Shown: positions 11,651 through 47,665, counted from the first letter of the stretch. The stretch is 64,000 nucleotides of DNA from Protoeuglena noctilucae (GCA_958009085.1 OY253669.1:1488001-1552000), one strand, 5' to 3'. Notes: a model not told the origin generated them from the letters alone. Numbers and translations: made by a program.

Positions 11651-13098
11651 TCATGTTCCCGTCAGCCAAACGGGCCGCAGCAATGCCGCCTCGACGTGCA
11701 CTCCGGCAGTCGCAACATCCCGGCACGCTTTGACGTTGGCCGTCAGCAGGAGGCCCCGGGCAGCCCGCGCCACCAGCACCGCGTCTCGCTGCAGCAGTGG
11801 CACCCCCGCCTCCGCCATCGTTTGTCCCGCCGCGCCGCCTTCGTCTAGCGGCAGAGGCCCCGCGCCATGGACCGCGGCTGCTGCTCCCAACCGATCCAAA
11901 TCACCCCCGTCAGCGTCGATCACCTCCACGCGCAGCCGGTAGGTTTCTCGCCACCGCTGTTTCTCCCTTGCACCCCCGAACTCCTCCAGCAAGCGCTCGA
12001 AGTGATCGACGGACGACCGCTCGCACAGCCAGCGCCGACCAGCCATCGCCGCCTCGAGCAGCCCCAGCATGGGCTCTTCCTCCTCCTGCCTGCACCCGCA
12101 GAGCATGGGGTGCGCGCTGTGAACGAAGTCTCCGGCCACACAAGCGGGGCTTCCCGCAACATGCTCTGTCCACGCACCTGACGCATAGCTCTCGGTGGAC
12201 GTTGCCCGCCGCCCACTCCCGCACGCTCGGCAGGGCGATGCCCCCGTGCGAAAGCTCGGAGCACAGCGCGCAAAGCGTACTCGTCTCGAACACAAGTGTC
12301 CAGCTCCCCTGGCGCGCCCTGCGGGTGCGATGCTCGCATGCCTGCGTGTGTCAGCTGCAGGTGACGGGGGCCAGCCAAGGGCATGCGCATGCGGCTCGCA
12401 CCGTGGGCAGGGCCGGCGAGAAGCCGACCGCCACGTGAACGCCCATTGCTTCAATTTCCTCCCTCAGATCGCCGGGCAGGCTCTCCGCCACCACCAGCAC
12501 CACGCGCGGCGGGGCATAGCGCACAAAGTTGCGCTCCATCTGTGCGGCGTGCATGGCAGCCTGCAGCTGCACGCGCAGACCCTTGACATGTCCCGGGTTG
12601 CCCTGCCAAGCCGAGCTGCTCGGCCCCAGCTCTGCCACACTCTTCACTTCTATCCAACACGCCCCTCCGTGACACACCACGTCGATGTCCACCCGGCCCG
12701 TCCCCGAGCAGTCTGGGGCCCCGGGGACCTTCAGCCCCACTGCCGTGAGACCGGGGACATTGGACGCGACACGGAGCTCGGCACGGATGCCCATCGCGTT
12801 GTTGCGCGAGCCGCAGATGCGGGCCGTGAGCTCTCGGAAGCGGTCTGCGTCCTGCCCTGCGGACCGTGCGACCTCGAGGCTCTGCTGCAGGCCGGTGAGC
12901 TCGCTGCGAAGGCCCCGTCGCAGACGGCTCATCCCCGGGCACCATGCAAGGGGCTCGCAGAGCCGATCGAGCTCCTGCGGCGGAGGGAGGAGATGGCTGG
13001 TGAGCAGCCATGTGTTGGATCAGCTGGGACATCGAAGATAGCGGCTAGCTCACCTCGAGCTCACCAAGCAGCCGCTCTCCTTCCTCTAAAGTGTACAT
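11651..13098 (-). CDS. UPF0415/C7orf25-like protein (DUF1308 family)
   Basis: MYTLEEGERLLGELE|ELDRLCEPL...; VDIDVVCHGGACWIEVKS; TSTLCALCSELSHG; LCERSSVDHFERLLEEFGGAREKQRW; C-terminus LLLTANVKACRDVATAGVHVEAALLRPVWLTG*. Motifs recognised by eye as DUF1308-like. Confidence 0.75.
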
Positions 13099-13742
13099 CA
13101 CGGGCGCCGCTCGGCCGCGGACAGCGACCGAGCAGCGGCCCTGCTGCCCAGCAGCGCCCTTGCACGTGGTGCGGACAAGAGTGAACCCAATGCGTCCAAC
13201 ATGAAATCGCATGAAGCTCAAGCAGCTCAGCGACGCGGTCACCACGTCATGACCACGTCTGAGCTAGCAGCAAGTAGTCGTCGGCCCTGGGGCTGCACGG
13301 AACTGGCGCTAGGGCGTGCCCGCTTCTTGCGCAAGCTTTGATGGTTCGGCGGCACGCACGACCCCGCCCTCTCGATTGTCTAGCATGCTGGGCAGGCCGG
13401 GCTGTTCACCGTGTCTCACAACGTTCTGAAAGCCGTTGCACATCCACAACTGCGCCTTCTTGTCGCCTGGTCCCCCTGCCTGGTCCTCTAAGCACCCCAG
13501 GTGAGACATGTATAAGAGCATAAAGGAGCACTGCACCAGAGCACCTTCACAGGTGCACTTTGTTGCGCGCGATGGCGTTGTGGCGGGGTTACCGGGCTCC
13601 ACAGCGCGTGCGCAGGGCTCCGTTTGCTCCCGTGTCCCCGCTCCCTGCCACTTCCGTCTGATTTCAAGCTTTCCATGGCGCTGTCCTTGCAGCGCGGCCC
13701 CGAGGTGCACCGGCGCGTGCTGGCCCAGCTGGGCCCGCGTCG

Positions 13743-16700
13743 CTAATGCTCCTGCGAGACGATTTGGACCCCGAAGTCCGAGGCCACCGCGGGCGTTGCC
13801 ACCCAGAACGTTTTCCATCCAGGGGTCCACTGCCTGCATGTCTGCGGTGCATGGGTGGAGGCAGGGATTTGTCAACTTGCTGTCACACTCTCTGGCCTCC
13901 CCGCTGCCCGCGCGGGCTCACATCCGCTTGGGAAAGCATCACGCAGTCCCCATCTCCCACGCCGTACGAAAATGCGTTGCAGCGCGCGTCCTCCGCGCAC
14001 CACCGCGCGCACTGCGCTGGCGAAGTGTCGGCGTCCACTCCCAGGACCTGCGCGTCGCGGCGTGGGGCGCTGTCCTTCGCTTCCGGGCCCCTTTTCTGAT
14101 TTCTATAGCATTGGTGCCTTCTCCAGCCGCGAGTTTTGCTTTGCGCTCCGCGCGCACCTCGACATGGCACGCCGTGAAGTGGTCTCCCCAGGCCACGAAC
14201 GTGGTCCCGCCCGTGGCGATGGACTCGAACGACCGCGCCTTGCCCGGCACGCAGTTGGGGACCGCATCGGCGTTTTCCATGTAGCGGGCGACTCTCTGCG
14301 CGCGCAGGAATGGGCAGCGCATCGCATAGCTACGTCCGCCATGCCTGCCCACCCGTCCGCCCCACGCAGGGCCAAGGCGGTGCCGCCCTTTCTCCCGCGG
14401 AGCGACGGAGGACTCGGAGGCATTCACAGGTGAGGCTGGGGCTGCGCGCACCTGGGCATGTTCCCGGATGAGGTCGAACGTGGTGTCCTCCACCCTCACG
14501 GCGCGGTCTGCGGGGGCCGAGAGGGTGAAAAGTACCAGTTCCAGGCGTGGAGGCGTCCCTCGGTGCCAGGAACGCCTTTCAGGGGTTGCTGTTCGGGATT
14601 GGGACCCAAAAGGCACGAACGACGACGGAGTCGGTGTGAGCCGCGGGCCGGCTGACGGGAAGACGGCGAAAGGCTGGCGGCGCGGGTCTCACCTGAGTCG
14701 TTCGTGCCGTTTGGGTCCCACTCCCAAAACAGCGACCCTTGGAGGGCGTTCCTGGCGCCGAGGGACGCCTCCACGGCTTGGAACATAGACGCGTAGAACG
14801 GGTCCCGCACCTCGGTGATATTCTCCTGTCCGCGCGCGGCCGCCTTGCCGAACTCCTCGGCCACGACCGCCTTGCCCATCTGCCGGGCGGACGCGAGCCG
14901 GGCGGCCACGAACGAGTCCTGGAAGTCCAGGGTGGGCACGCCCCAGTTGTCGACCCACAGGTGGTACGACGCATAGTCAATGGACGGGTGCCGGTGGTCC
15001 AGCCCAAAGTCCTGGCCTGCGGGGAAGGACGTCGGGCCGCCTTGTCCATCGACTACCCGTCCTACCACCTTGCTGGGCTCGGTTCCATACACCACCTTGA
15101 TTCATATCCCTTCCTGCGCTCTATGATGGTCAAATGTCGCTGCGGTGGCTCAGCATCCCGGGGAGGTGCTCCCTGCGCTGTGGATGGCCCCGTGCGTCGG
15201 CGGCGGGGCCTCACCGGTCTTGGACGCCCAGTAGCGATTCCAGGGGCAGCACTCGGGTGGGTGCTCCTCGACGGGGTTGGCCCGCAGCTCGCTCTCCCGG
15301 GACAGCAGGCTGTAGAAGCCCTCCTGTCCCACTGCAGCCACGGCGCGCGCGGCCAGCGATGAGGGCCACGTGCGCTCTGCTGGACCTGGTGAGCAGCCAT
15401 GCCTGCTGCGCTCGCCTGTGACCATGTGGTGGGCGTCGTGCTCTTTCAGGAACTGGCCCATCTCGTGGATCCAGTAGTCCATTTGCACCGCGCACCGCAA
15501 GGCGGGGTCGTTGGCAGAGTAGGTCGCGTTCTGCGGGGACATGCATGGACACGTCGCAGTCCAACCCTTCTCCCAGCGCCGTGCGCTTCCCTCCACCCAC
15601 GCAGCACGCAGCGCCATCGGATGTCTCCTCAAAGCGCCCAATGGCCCTCGCCTGGCACCGGAGCTCGTTCGCCAAGTCCCACGTCATGATGGTGGGGTCG
15701 TCTCGGTACGGCACGCACGTGACCGTGTTGTTGCGGCTCAGGACGGTCGCGACGTGGTTCTGGAAGAGCTTCATCACGCCCGGGTGCCAAAAGAAGTTGT
15801 CCTCGTCCGGGCACTCGGCCTGCGGTGGGTCGCAACGCAAGGATCCCAACAACAACTGCGCCCAGCGCCACGACCCCGGGCCTCCCAGGCCCGGCAGGTC
15901 TTCTGATCGACTTGTCTACAAGCCCAGCACTCGCCTGGTAGCACTGGGTCTCCTCGGCGTCGTCGTACGTCGGCTTGGTGGCCGTGGCCGTGGGGTCGAA
16001 CAAGGCGCTCTGGGGGTCCAGCTTGGGGTTAAAGTAGTAGAAGCAGTCGCGCACGGAGCACTGCCCGGCGTGCGCCCAGGCCACGTACTGCTTCTTCCCG
16101 TCCACGGCTTTCCACTGGTTCGTGAAGGTGAGGATCAGCTTGAGCCCCGCCTGCCCCGCGCGCGCGATGGCGCGGTCCAGGGCCTGGAACATCGTCTCGT
16201 TGTAGACGCCCGGCGCGGGCTGCAGCACGTCCGGGCGGTCGGACCCGTGCGCGAAGAACCTGTGCGCGCGGGGTTGAGGGGTGGAAGTAGTTGTGGGCCG
16301 GCCGGGGCTTATTAGCGGGGACCGCTGGGGCGCATGCGCAGCGCCAGGCTTCACGCACCGGAGGGTGGTGAAGCCCGTGGCTTGCGCGGTGTCGAACGCG
16401 ACCTCCAGCCCCGGGTTGCCGTGCAGGGTGTCCTCCATCACCTGCAAAAGGGACGGGGGACGTGGGCGCGGCACGCGCAAGCGGCACATGTGGCAGGCGA
16501 GTGCTGGGCCGCTGGGGGCTCTCGCCCACCTTCCACCCGTTCCACCCAACCATGACAAAGGGCTTGCATTTTTTGTCCACGAATCTGCCCTGGTGCACGC
16601 GGATGAAGCCCCGTTCGTCGTCGACGGCCCTGGAGAGCAGCGCCAGCAACCCGCCCGCTGCGGGGTGCGAGGCTAGTCGTTTTCGGTGCGACCCTCTCCT

Positions 16701-16805
16701 CACGCGGTCGTTGAGCGAAGGGTGGGGGTTGCCGGCAGCCGCGGCATCACCTGCCAGCGCCGCGGTCACTGCAGCGACGCAAGCCTTGCGGCACCAGGCC
16801 TTCAT
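13743..16805 (-). CDS. Secreted GH5 endo-beta-1,4-mannanase-like protein (copy B) with C-terminal PAN/Apple-like Cys domain
   Basis: Signal-like N-terminus MKAWCRKACVAAVTAALAG; GFIRVHQGRFVD; GFTTLR|FFAHG; LQPAPGVYNETMFQALDRAI; YRDDPTIMTWDLANELRC (acid/base Glu); HHMVT|VGQEGFY; IDYASYHLWVDNWG; AVVAEEFGK (nucleophile Glu); GSLFWEW. Tail: QCARWCAEDARCNAFSY...DCVMLSQAD|TCRQWTPGWKTFW...EH* (TAG 13743-13745). Confidence 0.9.
14538..14784. repeat. Long imperfect inverted repeat: intronic antisense copy (14538-14623) of the adjacent GH5 exon segment (14697-14784), spacer 73 nt
   Basis: 14538-14623 (gttccaggcgtggaggcgtccctcggtgccaggaacgcctttcaggggttgctgttcgggattgggacccaaaaggcacgaacgac) aligns to the reverse complement of 14697-14784 (gttccaagccgtggaggcgtccctcggcgccaggaacgccctccaagggtcgctgttttgggagtgggacccaaacggcacgaacgac) at 77/88 positions by my hand alignment. 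Confidence 0.95.
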
Positions 16806-17174
16806 CGCATCGAGCGACGTTTGTTTACCAGGGACCGCCAGCGCCGCTTGGGGGCCCTGGGACGCGGTCTCGACGGGGCGCGGGGTCTTGCGAGTCCCGA
16901 TGGTCGCCGCCGGGCCGCCCTCTGATCGGCGCTGCTCCTTTCCGCTTTCGATTTTGCGATGCCGCGCTGTTCGCGCCGCGCATTTCCCTCGAGCGAGCGC
17001 ACCCGTGCCAGTCTGACTCAGGGAGTGCCACATCCTCGTTTTCTTGCAGGTCAGCCAGCAGGTCAGCCAGTAACTTCAACCCATCGACTGTCGAGACGCG
17101 CTCATTCGCACGGGTGAGCGCAATGGGGTGCTAGTGCTTCGCCCCCTGTCTGTCTTCGGCATGTTAGGTCGGCT

Positions 17175-20100
17175 TCACGCCCCCGCCAGCCCCTTGATCG
17201 CTTCCGGCGACTCCATCCAATACGTCGTCGATCCTGCCTGCCACTGCGTTGGGGATTCACGGTTTCCCGCGTTACCTTCGCGCTTTCCTGCACAGCAACG
17301 TGTGCACATGCGGCCGCCCCCGGCCCCGCCCCGCTCGCTTGCCTTAGTGCACGTGTCGGCGGAGGAGTGCATGGTGCACCCGTCGCCCGACACCGTGAAG
17401 GCCGCGCAGCTGCTGTTGCCAGCGCAGTCTGAAGCGCATTGGTTGGCGTCCTTGGACCCGGTGCTCCCCTGATTGCTGGTGGTGCAGGAAACAATGCCGC
17501 GGCCGACGCCCACGAACGTCTTCCCCCCCGCGTTGACTGCAGGCGCAATTAGAACGACCCGGACTCGTACTCTCGCCGCAGCCACTACTGCGACCATCCC
17601 ACTTATACGCTGGGGTCGCTCTGCTACCCAGCGCCCTGCGCAGCCCTGTCAGAGCTGCAGGCGGCCCTCACCCTGGTGAAGGGAGCGGTACGACCCCGGC
17701 GTGCAGTTGGGGACCGTTGATGCCCCTTGGACGATACCCCGGAGCTTCTGGGCGTTGGCGACGGCGAGCTTGTAGGTGGAGTCGCCCGTGTGGACGATGT
17801 TGGGCGACGCCCCGTCCCCTGCCAGGTCCCACTGCCAGAACAGGGCGCCCTGGAGGGAGCCGCCGTCGTCCACGGCCTTCTCCAGCATGCTGCGAGGGGG
17901 GCCAGGCGACGGGTGCGATGCGTCCGGCTGGGCGACAGGTGCCGGCATGCGGTGCACCGTGTGCGATGCACCCGGCGCTCTCACTTGTACATACTGGAGA
18001 AGTACGGGTTCTTGGTGCCCTCATCGCCCTCCTTACCAAACTCCTCGGCCACCAGGGGCATCCCCATGGACTGCGCCGCCTGGGCACGGTGGGAGACATA
18101 ATCGTCCTGCGTGCGGGGATCGCAAGGCCACGGTTGGTGCCGGGGGCGCCCAACGCCTGCGCCCCATCTGCCCTAGCACCTGCAATCGCCGTGGCGCAGC
18201 TCACGAAGAACCCCTCCCACGCCATCTCCCAGTTGTCCACCCACGTGTGCAGCCCCGTGTAGTCGATGCCGTCGTGCTGGTGGTTGAGCTTAAAGTCCTG
18301 TCCTGCGGGGACGGGAGCCGATCGGCAGGAGCTCGTTTCTGCTGTCCTGCGTGCCTGGGGCTACCCGCATGCCTTTGTTGTCTTGCCAGCGGCTCCGCCC
18401 CTCACCCGTCTTTTGCGCCCAGTACTTCTGGTACGGGCAGCACGAGTCCACGTTGCGGTTGTAGGGGTTCGTGTCCCGATCCCCCTGGTCGCCGAGCACG
18501 CTGTAGAAGCCCTCCATGCCGACTGTGACCAGGTGGTTCGGGTCCACGCTCTTGGTGTACGCCGCCATCTCGGCCGTCCACGCGTTCTGCTCTTGGGCGC
18601 ACTTGACCCCGGGGCAGTTGCTCAGGAAGCATTGCTGCGGGCGTGGTGGCGTGCGCGGGTCTCTGGCGCAGGCAGCAAGCTGTCGGCATCGACTTGCTAG
18701 GTAGTTCCTCAGCATGCCATGGGCTGCGCCTGGCCAGTGCCCGTGCTCACCACGCAGCGCGGCTCGTTCATGAGGTTCCATGCCAGGATGGCCGGCTCGT
18801 CCTTGTACTCGCGTCCGGTCACGGTGCTGACCCGGTTGGCCATCCTGCGGCTCGGCAGAGGCACATGTGCCTTGGCGCCTGTTTGCGCCATGGCCAACGC
18901 CCACACGAGCGCCCAGCCAGGCCGCAGGGCGCTCAGCTCACGCGTGGATGTGGTTCTTGTAGAGCTGCTTGACCTTTTCGTCGTAGAAGAACTTGTCCTC
19001 GTCTGGGCAGTGGTCCTGCATATGGCACCGCGACCGAAGCCTTTGTCACACGCACGGCGTGGCTTTCGCTGCAGCCTTGCAGACCGCGGACATGGGCCGC
19101 TCGGTTTTGCTGCCGCCCTTGCCATGGCTTTTCCACTCTTTTGCCCAGCTGCCACCCACCGCTGCCAAGGGCGCACCAACATGCATGGCCCTGGTGCCCA
19201 CCCCGCCCGGCTCACCCGGAAGCACTGGTCCTCCGAGTTGTCCGTGAATCGACCCCCGTGGTCCAGCTGGTCCCAGCATGCTTGGATGCTGCAGTTGCCC
19301 ACGTTTGCCTGCGTGTTTGCGCGAAGGGCACACCCCGTGGCCGTCACACGCAGGCGGCTGGCTCGCGCAGCACGGCGTGCTGGCGGAAGGCGGGGACGCA
19401 GCCGTCAAGAGGTTGAGTTCAGGGGGCCATGCCTGATCCGGGTGAGGGCTGAGCAAAACCACACGCGTTCGCACTCACCCACGCCACGTACTGCAGCTTC
19501 CCGTCCACCGGCTTCCACATGTTGCTGAAGGTGAGGACGCACCGGATGCCGGCCTCCGCGGCCTTGTCGATGGCGCGGTCCAGCGCGGAGAACATGGCTC
19601 TGCGGTCGAGACGCATAGGTGAGGGAGGTGCACTCGCAGCTGGATGCGTGAGAGAGGGGCGTGACTAGGGGGTCCAACTCACTCGTTGTACACGCCAGGC
19701 GAGGTCTGCAGGGCGTCGCCCCTCAGCGAGCCGTGTGCGAAGAACCGCACCGTAGTGAACCCGGCGTCCTGTGCATGCTTGAGCGCCTCGTCGAACTCGG
19801 ACCGGCCGTCGCGCACCGCCTCGACGACCTGCGCGGGGCGCGAGGGCCGGGGCCAGGTTTCCCGGCTCCCGTGCGCTGGACTCAAGGCCGGTCGCTCGCT
19901 GTCCGCGCGCGCCTGCACCGCGTGCCGGGCCCCGAACGCGGGCCTTTGAGGGTGCTGGACCTTTGGGCCAGCCTGCGCCCGGGACCGTCCCGCTGCGCTT
20001 CCGCACTCACCCTCCAGCCGTTCCAACCGGTTTGGTAGAATGGCTTGCACTCGTTGTCCACGAACCTGTTGCCGTCGACGCGCACAAATCCCAGGGCCTC

Positions 20101-20303
20101 GGCAGTCCCGGCACCTGCGGCGGCGCGGGAGGGCTCCCTTCCGTGCCGCGCCTCGCTCATGTTTATATCCCGCATTCTTTCGGTCGCTGCTTGGGCGGGC
20201 AGGGCTCTGCGAGCTCTCGAGGGGCGCGGCGGCGGGCAGCTGCCTCACCCCAGAACCCGAGGACCGCCAGGGCGGCGCCCGCGGCGGCGATGCGTCGGAT
20301 CAT
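17175..20303 (-). CDS. Secreted GH5 endo-beta-1,4-mannanase-like protein (copy A) with C-terminal PAN/Apple-like Cys domain
   Basis: Signal peptide [119 protein letters not shown]. Tail: [17 protein letters not shown]...[21 protein letters not shown]. Tandem paralogue of 13743-16805. Confidence 0.9.
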
Positions 20304-20594: not shown

Positions 20595-22677
20595 ATGACC
20601 GGTCCCTTCTCCGCAGACGAAGACCTGGAGCGGGGCTCCCCGGACCCCAACCAGCTGACGCGACGGCTGGACCACCTCAGCGCCCACGGCGTCGTGGCGC
20701 TCCGGGACGTCGATGCGTCAGGCTGTTGGGGAAAGGGACAAGAGGGGGCGCTCGAGACGGAGATCGACTCGGACGAGGAGCTGCGGCTCGCGAAGGCGGC
20801 TGCCGACAGGTGGGCCGGCATGCGAGCCGCGCTGCGCCAACTCCCCGCTCTTGCCGAGGCCAATCCCGCGACCCAATCGCTGCTTGGCGTCCGCAGAGAG
20901 ATCACGAACAACAAGCTGGACCCCGACTACCACGAGGCGACGGCGCTGATCAAGACGATCGAGGAGATTGCCCAGGACTTCGGTTTGCGTTTCGCCTTTT
21001 TTGGCGCCGTCAAGGTCTTCCTGATCCTGGCCCTCATCTCCGGCGACACCTCCTTCATCGTCTTCGTCATCCTGCACCTGCGCATCCCCCTGTGGCTGGG
21101 CTTCCTCATCATCGCCGTGTTCAACCTGGTTGCCGGCATGGTCTTCCTGATCATCGCCACCAAGTACAAGTCGTGGGAGGAGAAGAAGAAGCGGAGGGAG
21201 ATGGCCAAGGACGCCCTCGCCATGGTGAGGCCGCCGGGGGCTGTCTGGGAGGGCCAGGCCAGGGCTTGCACTTGGTCGCGTCAGGCCCGGTGTCTCATGG
21301 GTCGTGCTCCTCACTTGATCAGAGGCCACGTGCTGTCTGGGCCACGGAGTACAGCCCCTCACTTGGTCAGTGCCTCGCGCGCAGAAGCAAGCGTCGGAGG
21401 AGGTGCGGACGACGATCGGCATGGCGCGGCGGGTGCACCACCGCCGGGGCGGCACGTTCGGCTCGCTAGGGCAGAACATGGAGCTGGCGCAGGCGGCGGC
21501 GGTCCTGCGCCCGTCGCTGGAGAAGGCGCTGCCGGCGAGCGTGCAACCCCTGGTCAACACGGTGCTGCGGAACATCGCCAAGATCGGGCAGGGCATGGCG
21601 AACCGGCAGGCGCCGGCGCCGGGGTCGTTCGGCGCCACGTTCGGGAGCGGCGGCGGCGGTGGGGGTGAAGCTGGTGGCGGCGGCGGGGCCGCGGCGCTGC
21701 TGGCGCCTCTGCAGATGATGGGCAACATGCGGCGGCGCCTGGGGAGCGCTGCGCAGGTCCCGGATCGCCGGCCCTCGAACCGGACGCTCAAGGACCGCGT
21801 GATGGCCAAGGTCATGTCCGAGCGGGCCAAGAGGAAGAACCGCACGCGCTTCGCCACGCCCGCCACGCGCATGACGTCGCGGCAGCGCGAGGTCTTCAAC
21901 CACAGGCGAGAGGCGTGGGGTGTGCAGCCTATGCGCAGGTCGACCGCGACTGCGTGCACCCTGGTGCGGCAGGGTCTCCGATGATCGCACCAGCCATGTC
22001 ATGGTAGCGCAATGCCAGCAGCAAGATGTTGCGCCCATCGACACCTGAATGTCGCCTGCCCCGCCTGGTGCGCCGCGCAGTGCGAGCAAGAGGTCTCCTT
22101 CGGGCGACGCCAGTGGCAGCGAGTCGTCGGGAAGCGGCAGCGGCAGCGGCAGCGTCCGCATCCGCAGCGGCCCGTGTGCGGCGGGCGGGGGCATCTTAGC
22201 CACCATCTCCTCAGGCCATGCCAGCAGCCACGACCGGGCTCTGCAGCAAGCCGTGCAGATGAACGGGTCGGTCAAGATGTCGGAGATTCCGACGTCGAGG
22301 GAGGGCAGCCCGGCTCCAAGGCCCAGGCACAGGCGAGGGGCGGGGCGGGAGAGACGGCAGTGTGAAGGGCGGTGCTGGCCTCGACATCCACGGCAGTGGT
22401 GGCTGCTGCTCATTCCCTCTTCTGCTCGCCACTGCCCTGCGCTGCACTGTTGCCAACCCCTGCCGTCGCTGGCCATGCCGTGCCTCTGCTGTCCGTCAAC
22501 GTCCTTCCCTTCCCTTCCCCACGCAGCTCGGCCATTCCTCCGGACGACCTGCACCCGGTGCTGTCGTCGTCGCGCACGGGGGTCAGCAGGGAGGGGTTCC
22601 GGTCACCCAAGGCGACCTTATTAGCGGACGCCGACGACGCAGACATCGAGGAAGGGGGAGAAGACACCTATGGGTAA
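20595..22677 (+). CDS. Hypothetical membrane protein (about 2 TM helices, long disordered C-terminus), 4 exons
   Basis: Strong GC3 bias. Hydrophobic block VFLILALISGDTSFIVFVILHLRIPLWLGFLIIAVFNLVAGMVFLIIA followed by KYKSWEEKKKRRE. Frames join through a GT intron after ...DALAM and GC-donor introns at 21906 and 22333, ending ...EDTYG* (TAA). Confidence 0.7.
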
Positions 22678-35441: not shown

Positions 35442-38435
35442 ATGTGCGGAATCTTCGGTTACTACTTCGTGAACGTGTCCAAGCGGCGCGGGGCCGTCCT
35501 CGAGACGCTGCTGCGGGGGCTGCGGAGGCTCGAGTACCGTGGCTACGACTCGGCGGGGATCTGTTTGGAGACGTCCGAGGGCCCGGTGGTGATCAAGTCT
35601 GTGGGCAAGATTGACGAGCTGGACCGGATGGTGTACGCCCGGATCCCCGCGGACGAGCTGCAGCAGGTGAGCGTGCCGAGCCTGTGGCTGCACCGTCACA
35701 TGGCAGGGGCGCAGCGGACCGGCAACGAATGCCCGGGCTGCCCCGACGGGCGCAGACGATCGTGGACAGCGGCGACGGCCACTCGGCCATCGCGCACACG
35801 CGGTGGGCCACCCACGGTCCACCGTGTGAGGTGAACTCGCACCCGCACGTCTCGGGGCCAAGCAACGGCTTCGTGGTCGTGCACAACGGCATCATCACCA
35901 ACTACAAGGTGCCGTCCTGGCATACGCGCGGCAGTCGCTCCCTGCCGGCTGCGTCCAGGGTTCGAACCCTGCGTGCGGCGGGTGCATGCAGGCTCTCAAG
36001 TCGTCGCTGGAGAAGCATGGCGTCGATTTTGTCACGGAGACGGACACGGAGGTCATTCCCAAGCTCCTCCAATACATCTACGACGATCACGTGGCGACGG
36101 GGGTGAGTGCACGCGGGGTGCTGCGGCCGCTTGCTAGAACTGTCGTGCAGCGCCAAGAGCACGGGCGCACCCGCCGCAGGGCCCGCCCACGTTCCACGAG
36201 TTGGTCGCCGAGGTGTGCCGGCAGCTGGAGGGCGCGTTCGCCATCCTTGTCAAGAGCGTCTTTTACCCTGGGGAGTTAGTGGCAACCAAGCGTGGCTCGC
36301 CCCTCATCCTTGGCGTCAAGAGCGCGCTCAAGACCCCCGGCGGCGGGCCGGTGTCCAACCTGGACGTGTCGATGTACAAGTCGGATGGCCCGCTCGGTGA
36401 GCACGATGCCAGTTGGGCACCCACCACACGGCCCTCGCAGCCAGCTGTGGGTTTACCAGACATGGCACCTGCCCCACCCACATGGAGTTGCTCCACCCGC
36501 ATGGCATTCACACGACACCTGCCTGCGCCCGCAGAGTGCTTCCTGGCCTCGGACGCGTCCGCGGTGGTGGAGCACACGAAGCAGGTGCTGGTGCTGGAGG
36601 ACCACGACCTCTTGCACCTGGACAACGGCGTGATCGGGGCGTTCAACATCCAGAAGCGTACCGGGTTCGTGCACCCCGTGTCGCGGATGACGACGGTCCT
36701 CGAGATGGAGGTCCAGGAGATTATGAAGGGCGGGTTCGAGCACTACATGAAGAAGGAGATCCACGAGCAGCCAGAGTCGCTGACGCAGGTGAGGCGCCAT
36801 GCTGCTCTCTGGGGGCACGTGCTTGGCGAGGGTGCGTGCGTGTGTGCCTGGGGTGCCCAGGCAGGGCCGCCCGAGCCCAGGGGCAGCGGCGCGTTTGCGA
36901 AAGCAGTGAAGGATTGCTCTGGAACGCAGACGATGCGAGGGAGGATTCGGGGGGCGGGTGCCCCGGGTGCCTCGCCAGTGCGGGGTTTAGCGGTGAACAG
37001 CTTGGTCCCGGCGGTCAACGGCCTGGGGATCGCAGACAGCCCAAGCGAGTCCAACGGGCATGCGGAGCACGCCACGCTTGTCAACCGGCTGGGCGATAAC
37101 CTGGTCATGCTGGGTGCGGCAGCTCTTGCGGCCATGCTTGCTGTCTGCGCGCAAGTCGGAGCGTGCCTGCGACGAGACCCTCCCGTCCGCCGCGCAGGTG
37201 GCCTGCTGGACTGGGTGGACACGATTCGTCGCGCGCGCCGCATCCTCCTCATCGGCTGCGGCACAAGCTACCATGCGGCCGTGGCGGGGCGGCAGGTCAT
37301 GGAGGAGCTCGTGGGCATCCCCGTGGCGCTGGAGCTGGCGTCGGATTTGCAGGACCGCAAGTGCCCGCTCTTCCGGGACGACGTGTGCGTGTTCGTGTCC
37401 CAGTCGGGGGAGACGGCCGACACGCTCGGGGCACTGCGGTTCGCCAAGCAGCGGGGGGCGCTGTGCGTGGGCATGACCAACACGGTGGGCTCGGCCATCG
37501 CGCGGGAGACGACGTGCGGGGTGCACATCAACGCGGGCGCGGAGATCGGCGTGGCGTCCACCAAGGCTTACACGTCGCAGATCGTGTGCCTGGTCCTGAT
37601 GGCCGTCATGCTCGCCGGCGACAGCCGCTCGCTGCAGCCGCACCTGGCGGACGTCGTGGCGTCCCTCAAACACCTCCCGGACCTGGTGCGCACGACCTTG
37701 GCGCTGGACAAGGAGATGGAGGCGCTGGCGGGGGAGCTGCAGCACAACAAGTCCATCCTGGTGTTCGGGCGCGGGCCCAACTACGCCACGGCCCTCGAGG
37801 CGGCGCTCAAGATCAAGGAAATCAGCTACATCCACTCGGGTGAGGGCGCGCCTGGTGGGGGACGCAACGCACAGAGACCGGAGCTAAGTCGGGTAGACCA
37901 GAGCCACTGCGCACGGCTTGGAAAGCGAGGGTGCATGTGCAATTGCTGTGCCACTCGCAGAGGGCATCCTGGCTGGGGAGATCAAGCACGGCCCCCTGGC
38001 GTTGGTGGACGAGAGCTTGCCGCTCATCGTGGTGTGCACGCGCGACGGGTGCTACGGGAAGATGATCCAGGTCCTGCAGCAGCTGAGCGCCCGGGGCGCC
38101 AACCTGGTGAGCCTTGGCGAGCAGATGCTCGCATGCGGGCGGCGCCTTTGGCAGGCCGTCTGGGCTGTGGACGATGGCGCGCCCGTGCCTCCCCTGACAA
38201 CGTGCTCTCGCCCGCGGCGCAGATCGTGCTGTGCAACGAGGGCGACGACGAGGTGGCCGTGTCGGCCGGCAGCCGAGCGCGGTTCGTGCGCGTCCCCGAG
38301 ACGGTGCAGTGCCTCCAGCCCATCGTCAATATCGTGCCCCTCCAGCTGCTCGCCTACCACCTGGCCGTCAAGCGGGGCTTCAACGTCGACCAGCCTCGGA
38401 ACCTCGCCAAGTCCGTGACGGTCACTGAGAACTGA
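35442..38435 (+). CDS. GFAT: Glutamine:fructose-6-phosphate amidotransferase (isomerizing), eukaryotic type
   Basis: MCGIFGY (Ntn catalytic Cys); [132 protein letters not shown]. Confidence 0.97.
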
Positions 38436-45619: not shown

Positions 45620-47665
45620 ATGTCGGCCAGGGACGCGAGCCTGCAGCAGGCGCTGGTGGAGGCCATCCGCCATGACGTCCAGTTCAAGCTCAGGTGCGCG
45701 CGATGCCCGGCACAAAGCAGCGCTGCCGCCGCCATTTCGATCGTCTCCGTCCATCGCCGCGCCGAACCTGTCCGTGACGTGCCCCATCGCGCCGGCGTTG
45801 TCCCTGCAGGGAGCTCATCCAGGATGCGCTGAAGTTCACGCGGCACTCCAAGCGCCCGTTCTTGAGCGTCTCCGCCGTGGCGCAGGCGTTGCGGATGCGC
45901 GGCCAGGAGCCCCTGTACGGCGCGTGGGGCCCCAGGCGCACCGAGTTCATCCGGGCTTCAGGCGCCAGCGACGTGGTCGTGACCAAAGACCTTTTCACGC
46001 CCCTCAGCGTCATTGTCGAGGTGCGAATGCCTGCATCGATGTCAGAGCAACGACGGGACGCTCTCGCGCTGCAGTCTCGCGCGATGTTGCCGGCCCAGGC
46101 AGCCTAGGCTAACCCATCCTCCTGCCCGCCTGTCTGCAGAGGGGACTGCCCCCGCCGCCCGTGGAGGTGTCGTACGTTGCACACTGGCTGGCGATCGACG
46201 GGACGCAGCCCGCCATCCCGGAGAACATGCCCCTGGAGCGCGCCCCACGACCTGCGGCTGCCAAGGCCCAGCGTGCCGCACGCCCGGCTGCCCAGGCCGC
46301 GGAGCCCCAGATCGGCCCCCCGGCGCCTTCCGCAGGTCCTGGCGCCGTGGTGCACATGGGTGAGTGGCCCGTTCCCTCGGCTCGCGCGGGGCATCTCTGG
46401 GTTTGAGCAGCGCCTGGCCTCAGCTCGCGTGGGTTTGGCTACGCAATGCGGCCACACCTTTGTCCGCCACCTCAGCGCCAGCTTTCCTGCCTTGCAGTGT
46501 CCGCTGAGCTACAGCTGTACCTGGACAGGCTCGCGGACGTGCTGCGGGCCATGCGGAGCAAGACCCTGGCGGAGCAAGAGGTCTCTGTAGCAGAGACCAA
46601 GGTGGAGGTCGTGGCGGCGGCGGTGGAACGAGACCCGGGGCTGCAGCAGTTGCTGCCGGGCCTGATGCAGACGCTGGCGGGGGAGCTGCAAGAGACGAAC
46701 GGCCTGCCGGGGCACCTGGGAGCGCTCGTGCAAGTGGCCGAGGCGCTGGTGGCCAACCAGGCCCTCAACCTCACGCCCTACCTCCACCGCCTGCTCCCGG
46801 TCCTCATGAGCGTGGCCCTGGGCCGCCTGGGCCCCGCCGAGGGGGACGCCGTGCCCCTGGCCGCCCAGGACTGGCACGTGCGCGAGCGCGCAGCACAGGT
46901 CGTCGCGTCCCTCGCGTCGCGCTATGCCGCCGCGCCCTTCGACGTGCGTGGGCGCGTGCTCGCCTTCGCGGCAGGGCAGGCGTGCGCCCCGCGCGCCGAC
47001 GCCCGCACGCTGTACGGTGCCCTGGTGGTCCTCCGGGCCTTCAGTCCCGAGGGGTTCCCCAGCGCCGTCAGCCAGGCCCTTCGGGAGACGCCGTTGGTGG
47101 CGACGCTGGCGCGGTTCGTTGGCGCCGCGGAGGGCGAAGCGGGGCTGCAGGTGGAGGAGGGGGCACAGCTGCGCACGGAGGGGGGTGCGGGTGCGGGGTC
47201 TGGCAGCGGGCGCGGGGGCGCCGGGGATGCGGGCGAGGGGTCCTCGGGGGTGAGGGAGCGGGCGCTGCTCGCACGGCTGAGCAGGCTGCGGTGCGTGCGG
47301 ATGGGGGCGCACGTGCTGGGGCGCAACTTGCGGCGGAAGCTCCTCAGCTACGGAGACCTCAAGGCGCGCGGGGAGGACGTGGCAGCGCTGCAGATGCTGC
47401 GGGAGGCGCAGGTGGACGTCACTGCCATGGAGGTGAGGTTGCCGGAGCAAGTGCCGGGGCGACTGTGCCAGGGAACGGTCCAATGGTCACGCCAGTGCAC
47501 CATTTCTACGTATGTCGGCGAGACCTTTCGGCGTCAACTTTCTCGCAGGGCCGGAGTGGGCATGTGGGTGCAGGGGCTGAGGCGAGTGTGGGGCCGCTAG
47601 ACACGGGGGACCCAGCATTGCTGGCTATGCTGCCCAGCCCATACCTATGTTTCTTGCAAGTGTGA
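45620..47665 (+). CDS. TAF6: TAF6 / TAF6-like (histone fold plus HEAT repeats)
   Basis: DVQFKLR|ELIQDALKFTRHSKRPFLSVSAVAQALRMRGQEPLYG; AHWLAIDGTQPAIPEN; SAELQLYL; DPGLQQLLP; LTPYLHRLLP; DWHVRERAA. I cannot resolve TAF6 versus TAF6L by eye. Confidence 0.85.

Follow-up and report, generated by a model that had tools for sequence, protein, structure and literature searches.

A stretch of 64,000 nucleotides (nt) from Protoeuglena noctilucae (GCA_958009085.1 OY253669.1:1488001-1552000; called the window here, at its full length) contains a minus-strand GH5 beta-mannanase gene, mannanase B, with a 185-nt intron that holds an inverted and decayed copy of the end of its own upstream exon. The pair formed by the exon and this copy is the sole strong local inverted repeat of the window. 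We consider it probable that the copy is a neutral scar, left when a fold-back (snap-back) templated inverted duplication arose in a pre-existing intron. An earlier note on this DNA had offered three readings of the arrangement, and the neutral scar, the third of them, fits best: the arms are adjacent and inverted, the spacer is short and the copy has decayed.

The repeat consists of the following parts:

14697 to 14784, minus strand: exon arm, 88 of the final 92 nt of the mannanase-B exon, codons FQAVEASLGARNALQGSLFWEWDPNGTND; template of the duplication.
14538 to 14623, minus strand: intron arm, an 86-nt inverted and decayed copy of the exon arm, with 2 indels.
14624 to 14696, minus strand: spacer or loop of 73 nt, in which lie the final 4 bases of the exon and the 5' splice site (GT at 14692-14691).

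Both gapped local alignment and a repeat finder align the intron arm with the reverse complement of the exon arm, and the gapped alignment reproduces the coordinates and identity that the note had worked out by hand, with 77 of 88 columns identical and a longest perfect run of 18. The 11 mismatched columns, a divergence of 12.5%, comprise nine substitutions (six transitions and three transversions) and two 1-nt gaps. CpG-to-TpG changes account for two of the differences, as had been claimed, and the substitutions are spread over the codon positions as 2, 2 and 5, with no clear departure from evenness. The inverted repeat is far beyond chance and unusual for the window, which comes from a GC-rich (about 66%) marine microbial eukaryote: only four inverted pairs of at least 30 nt within 2 kb occur in the whole of it, two of which are the arm pair, while the remaining two reach 72-77% matches and lie in its most GC-rich part.

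Long-read assemblies sometimes contain fold-back chimeras, and an assembly artefact was one of the outcomes that the earlier note had named as fatal to its claim. An assembly or library fold-back is effectively refuted here, since a contig of 101,801 nt from a run of organism A (X6) covers 13900-15300 with 0 differences, at a word depth of 153 and with the repeat in mid-contig, and since the arms differ from each other at one column in eight, where artefacts are near-identical. Moreover, all sampled 31-mers of 14000-15700 are present in runs from two studies (marine metagenomes and organism-A runs), although one of these two data sets may be where the window itself comes from, which leaves at most one as independent.

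The intron that carries the copy lies within the following part of mannanase B:

14693 to 15016, minus strand: arm-bearing exon, 324 nt, with the EEFG nucleophile motif; its start is placed at a predicted acceptor, CCCCGCAG, common to paralogue A.
14508 to 14692, minus strand: arm-bearing intron, 185 nt, phase 1, with the boundaries CAG/GTGAGA and CCCCCGCAG.
14451 to 14507, minus strand: next exon, 57 nt, DRAVRVEDTTFDLIREHAQ.
14296 to 14450, minus strand: next intron, 155 nt, predicted from sequence and homology; it encloses a plus-strand exon described below.

The arm-bearing exon is a segment of a GH5 beta-mannanase, to which 15 PDB sequences match at E values up to 1; the best of them is Man5A (1uuq, E 7.8e-9), in an alignment that spans ..VVAEEFG.. 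and ..FWEW... Pfam gave nothing on single-exon mannanase pieces, and PF26410 is precomputed for P0002, a 198-residue open reading frame (ORF) of prokaryotic style (14496-15101, minus strand) that corresponds to the arm-bearing exon read through into the intron. The intron itself, as the earlier note had drawn it, is supported by homology. Only with 14508-14692 removed does ..FWEWDPNGTNDS run on into DRAVRVEDTTFDLIREHAQ-RVARYMENADAVPNCVPGK, restoring the conserved DRAVRVEDTTFDLIREHAQ; the junction so formed, ..NGTNDS followed by DRAVRVEDTTFDLIREHAQ, aligns with the homologue P0003 and with paralogue A, and the joined sequence matches ..ERGVRRSDSTWYMIAENAALV..GSCVPGR of P0003 and the corresponding stretch of paralogue A. 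At the equivalent site paralogue A is continuous, and the alignment reads straight through it without intron or repeat, in agreement with what had been claimed. RNA contigs of two metatranscriptome runs, X9 and X10, include none on 14464-15027, which says nothing about expression or splicing.

Several features indicate which arm is the older and what was copied. The exon arm is the source of the duplication, because it encodes the ..LQGSLFWEWD.. motif conserved in GH5 relatives, here across the homologues P0003-P0011. Four changes in the copy (L to F, S to L, W to R and E to D) hit residues conserved among the exon, P0006 and/or paralogue A, and together with two frame-breaking 1-nt indels they amount to a decay that coding sequence would not tolerate. 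A weaker similarity (16 of 21 columns) passes beyond the exon end into the first 20 bases of the intron, the loop halves 14633-14653 and 14673-14693 being weakly palindromic, which suggests that the segment first copied spanned the exon-intron junction and left a turn of some 19 nt. Lower identity past the exon end is expected if neither copy is under constraint there. Taken at face value, these dimensions give a copied unit of about 112 nt and an intron of about 60-70 nt before the event; four introns measured nearby, the arm-bearing one among them, are 95, 98, 155 and 185 nt long. Counting the weak extension would shorten the spacer between the arms from 73 nt to about 19 nt. That extension is marginal, since 3.5% of 3000 random window positions are equally palindromic (p about 0.035), and the centre of the turn is diverged. 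Within the 64-kb window, no second copy of the intron or of its non-exon parts was found.

The intron is probably older than the copy that it holds, since its site and phase seem to be shared by a fairly distant relative. This relative, P0006, is a 110-residue protein encoded on a single other contig of 5,285 nt and is 59-61% identical. Prokaryote-style ORFs that read through splice sites expose the intron sequence of relatives, and P0006 ends in ..FWEWDPDETNDT and then SGEG.. (..LQGSLFWEWDPDETNDT-SGEGRRREG..), without the conserved motif expected next. Here 'SGE' corresponds to TCN G/GTGAG, read through the donor by a prokaryote-style gene caller, as in P0002 (..NDSGETR..). Further relatives were sought elsewhere: in metagenome contigs of the Joint Genome Institute (JGI), 13 loci were found, all 31-54% identical over short stretches, none a close relative and hence uninformative on the intron, and a word-based protein search gave nothing at its 'longer' lengths and only P0002 and P0006 at its 'near' lengths.

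Under the favoured reading, a break would have formed in the intron, some tens of bases from its start, and the 3' end of the mRNA-sense strand would have snapped back on itself and been extended. The extension would have copied, in reverse, about 20 nt of the intron start and about 92 nt of the exon end, after which the extended end would have been rejoined to the remaining intron, lengthening it from its original size to 185 nt. Protein-level constraint would then have held the exon while the copy drifted, and the copy would have been tolerated because it is spliced out. As a by-product, the mannanase pre-mRNA and an antisense, plus-strand pre-mRNA could each form an imperfect duplex of about 86 base pairs (bp). 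Repair of DNA breaks in yeast has an established outcome of this kind, the fold-back templated inverted duplication, according to excerpts of a recent study (Yu et al., 2024; PMC11724301), and the mannanase repeat shares with those events an inverted copy beside its template, a short turn and a copied strand and orientation that fit priming by a folded-back 3' end.

A number of points weigh against a repair scar. The copy is at least 86 nt long (about 112 nt with the weak extension), while the yeast events in the same excerpts are mostly about 5-34 bp (PMC11724301), and it differs from them further in being old, fixed and without readable microhomology at the turn. As no RNA contig lies over the hairpin, the normal splicing of the intron is predicted from homology only. 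Finally, weak selection for a plus-strand hairpin would also produce both the persistence of the repeat to its present divergence without deletion and the retention of plus-strand G-U pairing at five of the six transitions.

Folding of both strands, proposed in the earlier note as a check, gave structures far better than those of shuffled sequences. RNA of 14500-14800 in the mRNA (minus) sense reaches -183.2 kcal/mol (z-score -13.7) and plus-strand RNA of the same interval -222 kcal/mol (z-score -16.7), and for neither strand did any of 100 dinucleotide shuffles do as well. For the arms alone, the duplex is stronger on the plus strand than in the mRNA sense (-171.9 vs -151.1 kcal/mol), and alignment columns 9-54 form 46 uninterrupted plus-strand pairs if five G-U pairs are counted. 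The note had reported six of seven transitions as G-U pairs on the plus strand; there are six transitions, five of which give G-U on the plus strand and one on the mRNA strand. By our own arithmetic this asymmetry falls short of significance (one-sided binomial, p about 0.11). The CpG-to-TpG changes make up two of the five plus-strand G-U transitions. Conserved residues place no more than three transitions in the copy, of which two are C to T and one is T to C.

The plus strand is transcribed through the hairpin. Matches of the X9 and X10 contigs, from metatranscriptomes of the same study and different samples, stop at 14430, and one begins at 14367; the loose ends of the contigs have single matches in the window, at 19355-19380 and 13468-13497. 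The joints so defined on the plus strand, 13500/14370 and 14429/19354, have GT..AG at both, and yield these features:

14370 to 14429, plus strand: antisense exon, 60 nt, within the mannanase-B intron 14296-14450; seen in the X9 and X10 RNA contigs.
14430 to 19353, plus strand: antisense intron, 4,924 nt, GT-AG, enclosing the hairpin, most of mannanase B and part of mannanase A.
13501 to 14369, plus strand: antisense intron, 869 nt, GT-AG, upstream of the 60-nt exon.

Spliced antisense RNA, which the earlier note had suggested looking for, is thus found across the hairpin in contigs of two metatranscriptome runs, and the joint 14429/19354 implies that the plus strand of the hairpin is made as RNA, barring trans-splicing. 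That the fold-back is transcribed as one RNA follows for the plus strand from these joints, and is presumed for the mRNA strand. The known pieces of the transcript (13392-13500, 14370-14429 and 19354 onward) are small exons within introns of the minus-strand genes. The X10 contig is spliced at 14429/19354 yet runs unspliced through the 14369/14370 acceptor that X9 uses, which suggests intron retention or an alternative antisense start. Among contigs of X11 (organism B) there was no match, which is no proof of absence. The three joined antisense exons contain no convincing reading frame; a plus-strand ORF with hydrophobic stretches starts at 20595 and has no Pfam match, and the transcript may lead to it as a long 5' leader or may be a non-coding antisense RNA. 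Low-depth contigs of the RNA libraries at 13900-14326 and 15071-15243 cross predicted mannanase splice sites unspliced, and may represent pre-mRNA, the antisense transcript or DNA carry-over.

Possible uses of the duplex were also considered. The fold-back might be a candidate young self-targeting small-RNA locus, diced on the plus strand or on the mannanase pre-mRNA, with small RNAs from the arm antisense to the exon silencing mannanase B, which we regard as unlikely. A fold-back arm derived from a protein-coding gene is what the Arabidopsis inverted-duplication model of MIRNA origin describes, in which the arms of the fold-back have similarity to such a gene (excerpts of Fahlgren et al., 2007; PMC1790633). 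Plus-strand transcription through the hairpin, the long run of consecutive plus-strand pairs, the stronger plus-strand arm duplex and a plus-strand right arm that is perfectly antisense to the exon all point the same way. Against these stand the non-significant G-U asymmetry, with its two CpG-to-TpG changes, the small number of transitions assignable to the copy (2 C to T against 1 T to C) and Rfam 15, which returned no match at gathering score in the window and none even at E up to 1 in 14300-15000. In its most specific form, a putative proto-microRNA or small interfering RNA (siRNA) locus would be newborn within its own target, expressed from the antisense intron, with its pairing kept by G-U-tolerant drift and with mannanase B as the gene silenced; this form is improbable. 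Alternatively, the exon-intron duplex could modulate splicing of the intron and thereby tune mannanase-B output, for example through retention and a premature stop: 185 nt is not a multiple of 3 and a read-through stop lies at 14496-14498, so retention would truncate the protein. The proposed route would tie the exon end to the 3' part of the intron and leave the 5' splice site in the 73-nt loop. Pairing of the exon arm rises from 0.66 with shuffled arms to 0.87 with the real intron arm, and hairpins overlapping splice sites in animals can compete with splicing (excerpts of PMC3794580 and PMC6097652). However, when a 411-nt pre-mRNA piece was folded, the intron arm did not raise pairing at the 5' splice site (-3 to +6), whose mean probability was 0.67 with the real arm and likewise 0.67 when averaged over 20 shuffled arms, and the exon arm is transcribed about 160 nt ahead of its partner, which would leave U1 time to bind. 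The splicing switch, another of the three readings in the earlier note, has thereby lost its one specific argument, and the extension of the stem across the 5' splice site on which it had relied amounts to the weak, 16-of-21-column similarity described above; we hold a splicing role to be unlikely. Across the G-U, splice-site masking and Rfam tests, no evidence was found for a function of the duplex.

The duplication could also have created the intron, if a fold-back insertion into continuous coding sequence had brought or exposed splice signals. An imperfect direct repeat, AGACC(C)GCGCCG, stands at both intron ends with 11 of 12 positions matching, and paralogue A is without an intron at this site. 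As good a direct repeat is reached, however, by 6% of random position pairs, several other intron positions distinguish paralogues A and B in any case, and the P0006 relative seems to share the intron. The copied segment, moreover, appears to include the GTGAG donor region, so that the donor would already have been present. We therefore strongly doubt that the intron arose in this way, and favour insertion of the fold-back copy into an intron that was there before.

The arrangement resembles several known systems and is set apart from them in that the working exon is itself one arm and the adjacent intron holds the other. Inverted-duplication MIRNA and hairpin-siRNA loci, as excerpted from PMC1790633, share with it a local inverted coding duplication, a slightly imperfect fold-back and arms that match the parent gene; here one arm is a working exon and its partner lies in the adjoining intron, so that splicing separates the arms in the mRNA sense. 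The editing complementary sequence (ECS) of ADAR substrates is likewise an intronic element that pairs with the upstream exon into imperfect double-stranded pre-mRNA (in the part of PMC4053966 available), but an ECS is conserved by selection, and the host here is a microbial eukaryote, while ADAR is described, in an excerpt of PMC4573499, as conserved in metazoans. Splice-site-overlapping (SO) microRNA hairpins also lie over a coding exon-intron junction, with possible competition between splicing and processing; those in the excerpts of PMC3794580 and PMC6097652 belong to the animal Microprocessor and are about 70 nt, whereas the stem here is about 86 bp with the splice site in its loop. As for introners or other transposon-derived introns, the many copies that mark them were not seen within the 64-kb window, and the direct repeat at the intron ends, read as a candidate target-site duplication, is as good as that of 6% of random position pairs. 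A four-term full-text literature search showed no exon-intron inverted arrangement of this kind in the titles and abstract openings of 13 of the 15 matching papers, which is weak evidence that it is undescribed.

The surroundings of the repeat include a tandem pair of minus-strand GH5 mannanase genes, gene B at about 13890-16800 and gene A at about 17300-20250. Each aligns along the whole of P0003, a homologue of 576 residues, and both end in a C-terminal PAN/Apple-like domain. The two are about 40-64% identical across aligned exon pieces and differ in intron positions: B has two introns after FWEWD.. that A lacks, and A has one that B lacks. Just upstream of the first known exon of the antisense transcript are minus-strand open frames at 12351-13019 and 11651-12463, with weak, below-cutoff Pfam hits to DUF5614 and DUF1308, and the intervening gap (about 13020-13390) might act as a bidirectional promoter. 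Farther along the plus strand lie a long open frame with SIS domains at 36138-38435 (GFAT-like, E 5.9e-45) and an open frame with a TAF6 C-terminal domain at 46407-47600 (E 2.6e-26); these are ordinary eukaryotic housekeeping genes and confirm a nuclear eukaryotic context.

Taken together, the exon-intron repeat of mannanase B is a neat single-locus curiosity without evidence of function, and the antisense transcript is the point to follow up, as it gives the idea that the duplex is used a concrete and testable form. If the repeat is only a scar, it provides a clean natural case of fold-back repair with a neighbouring exon as template, which made an intron about threefold longer, and it shows that long self-complementary copies of coding sequence can find shelter in introns. 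Should the duplex be in use, the locus would show how a small-RNA hairpin can arise inside the gene that it targets, here in a marine microbial eukaryote, and if it is a proto-microRNA or siRNA locus, the antisense host transcript and repression of mannanase B would be coupled in their expression.

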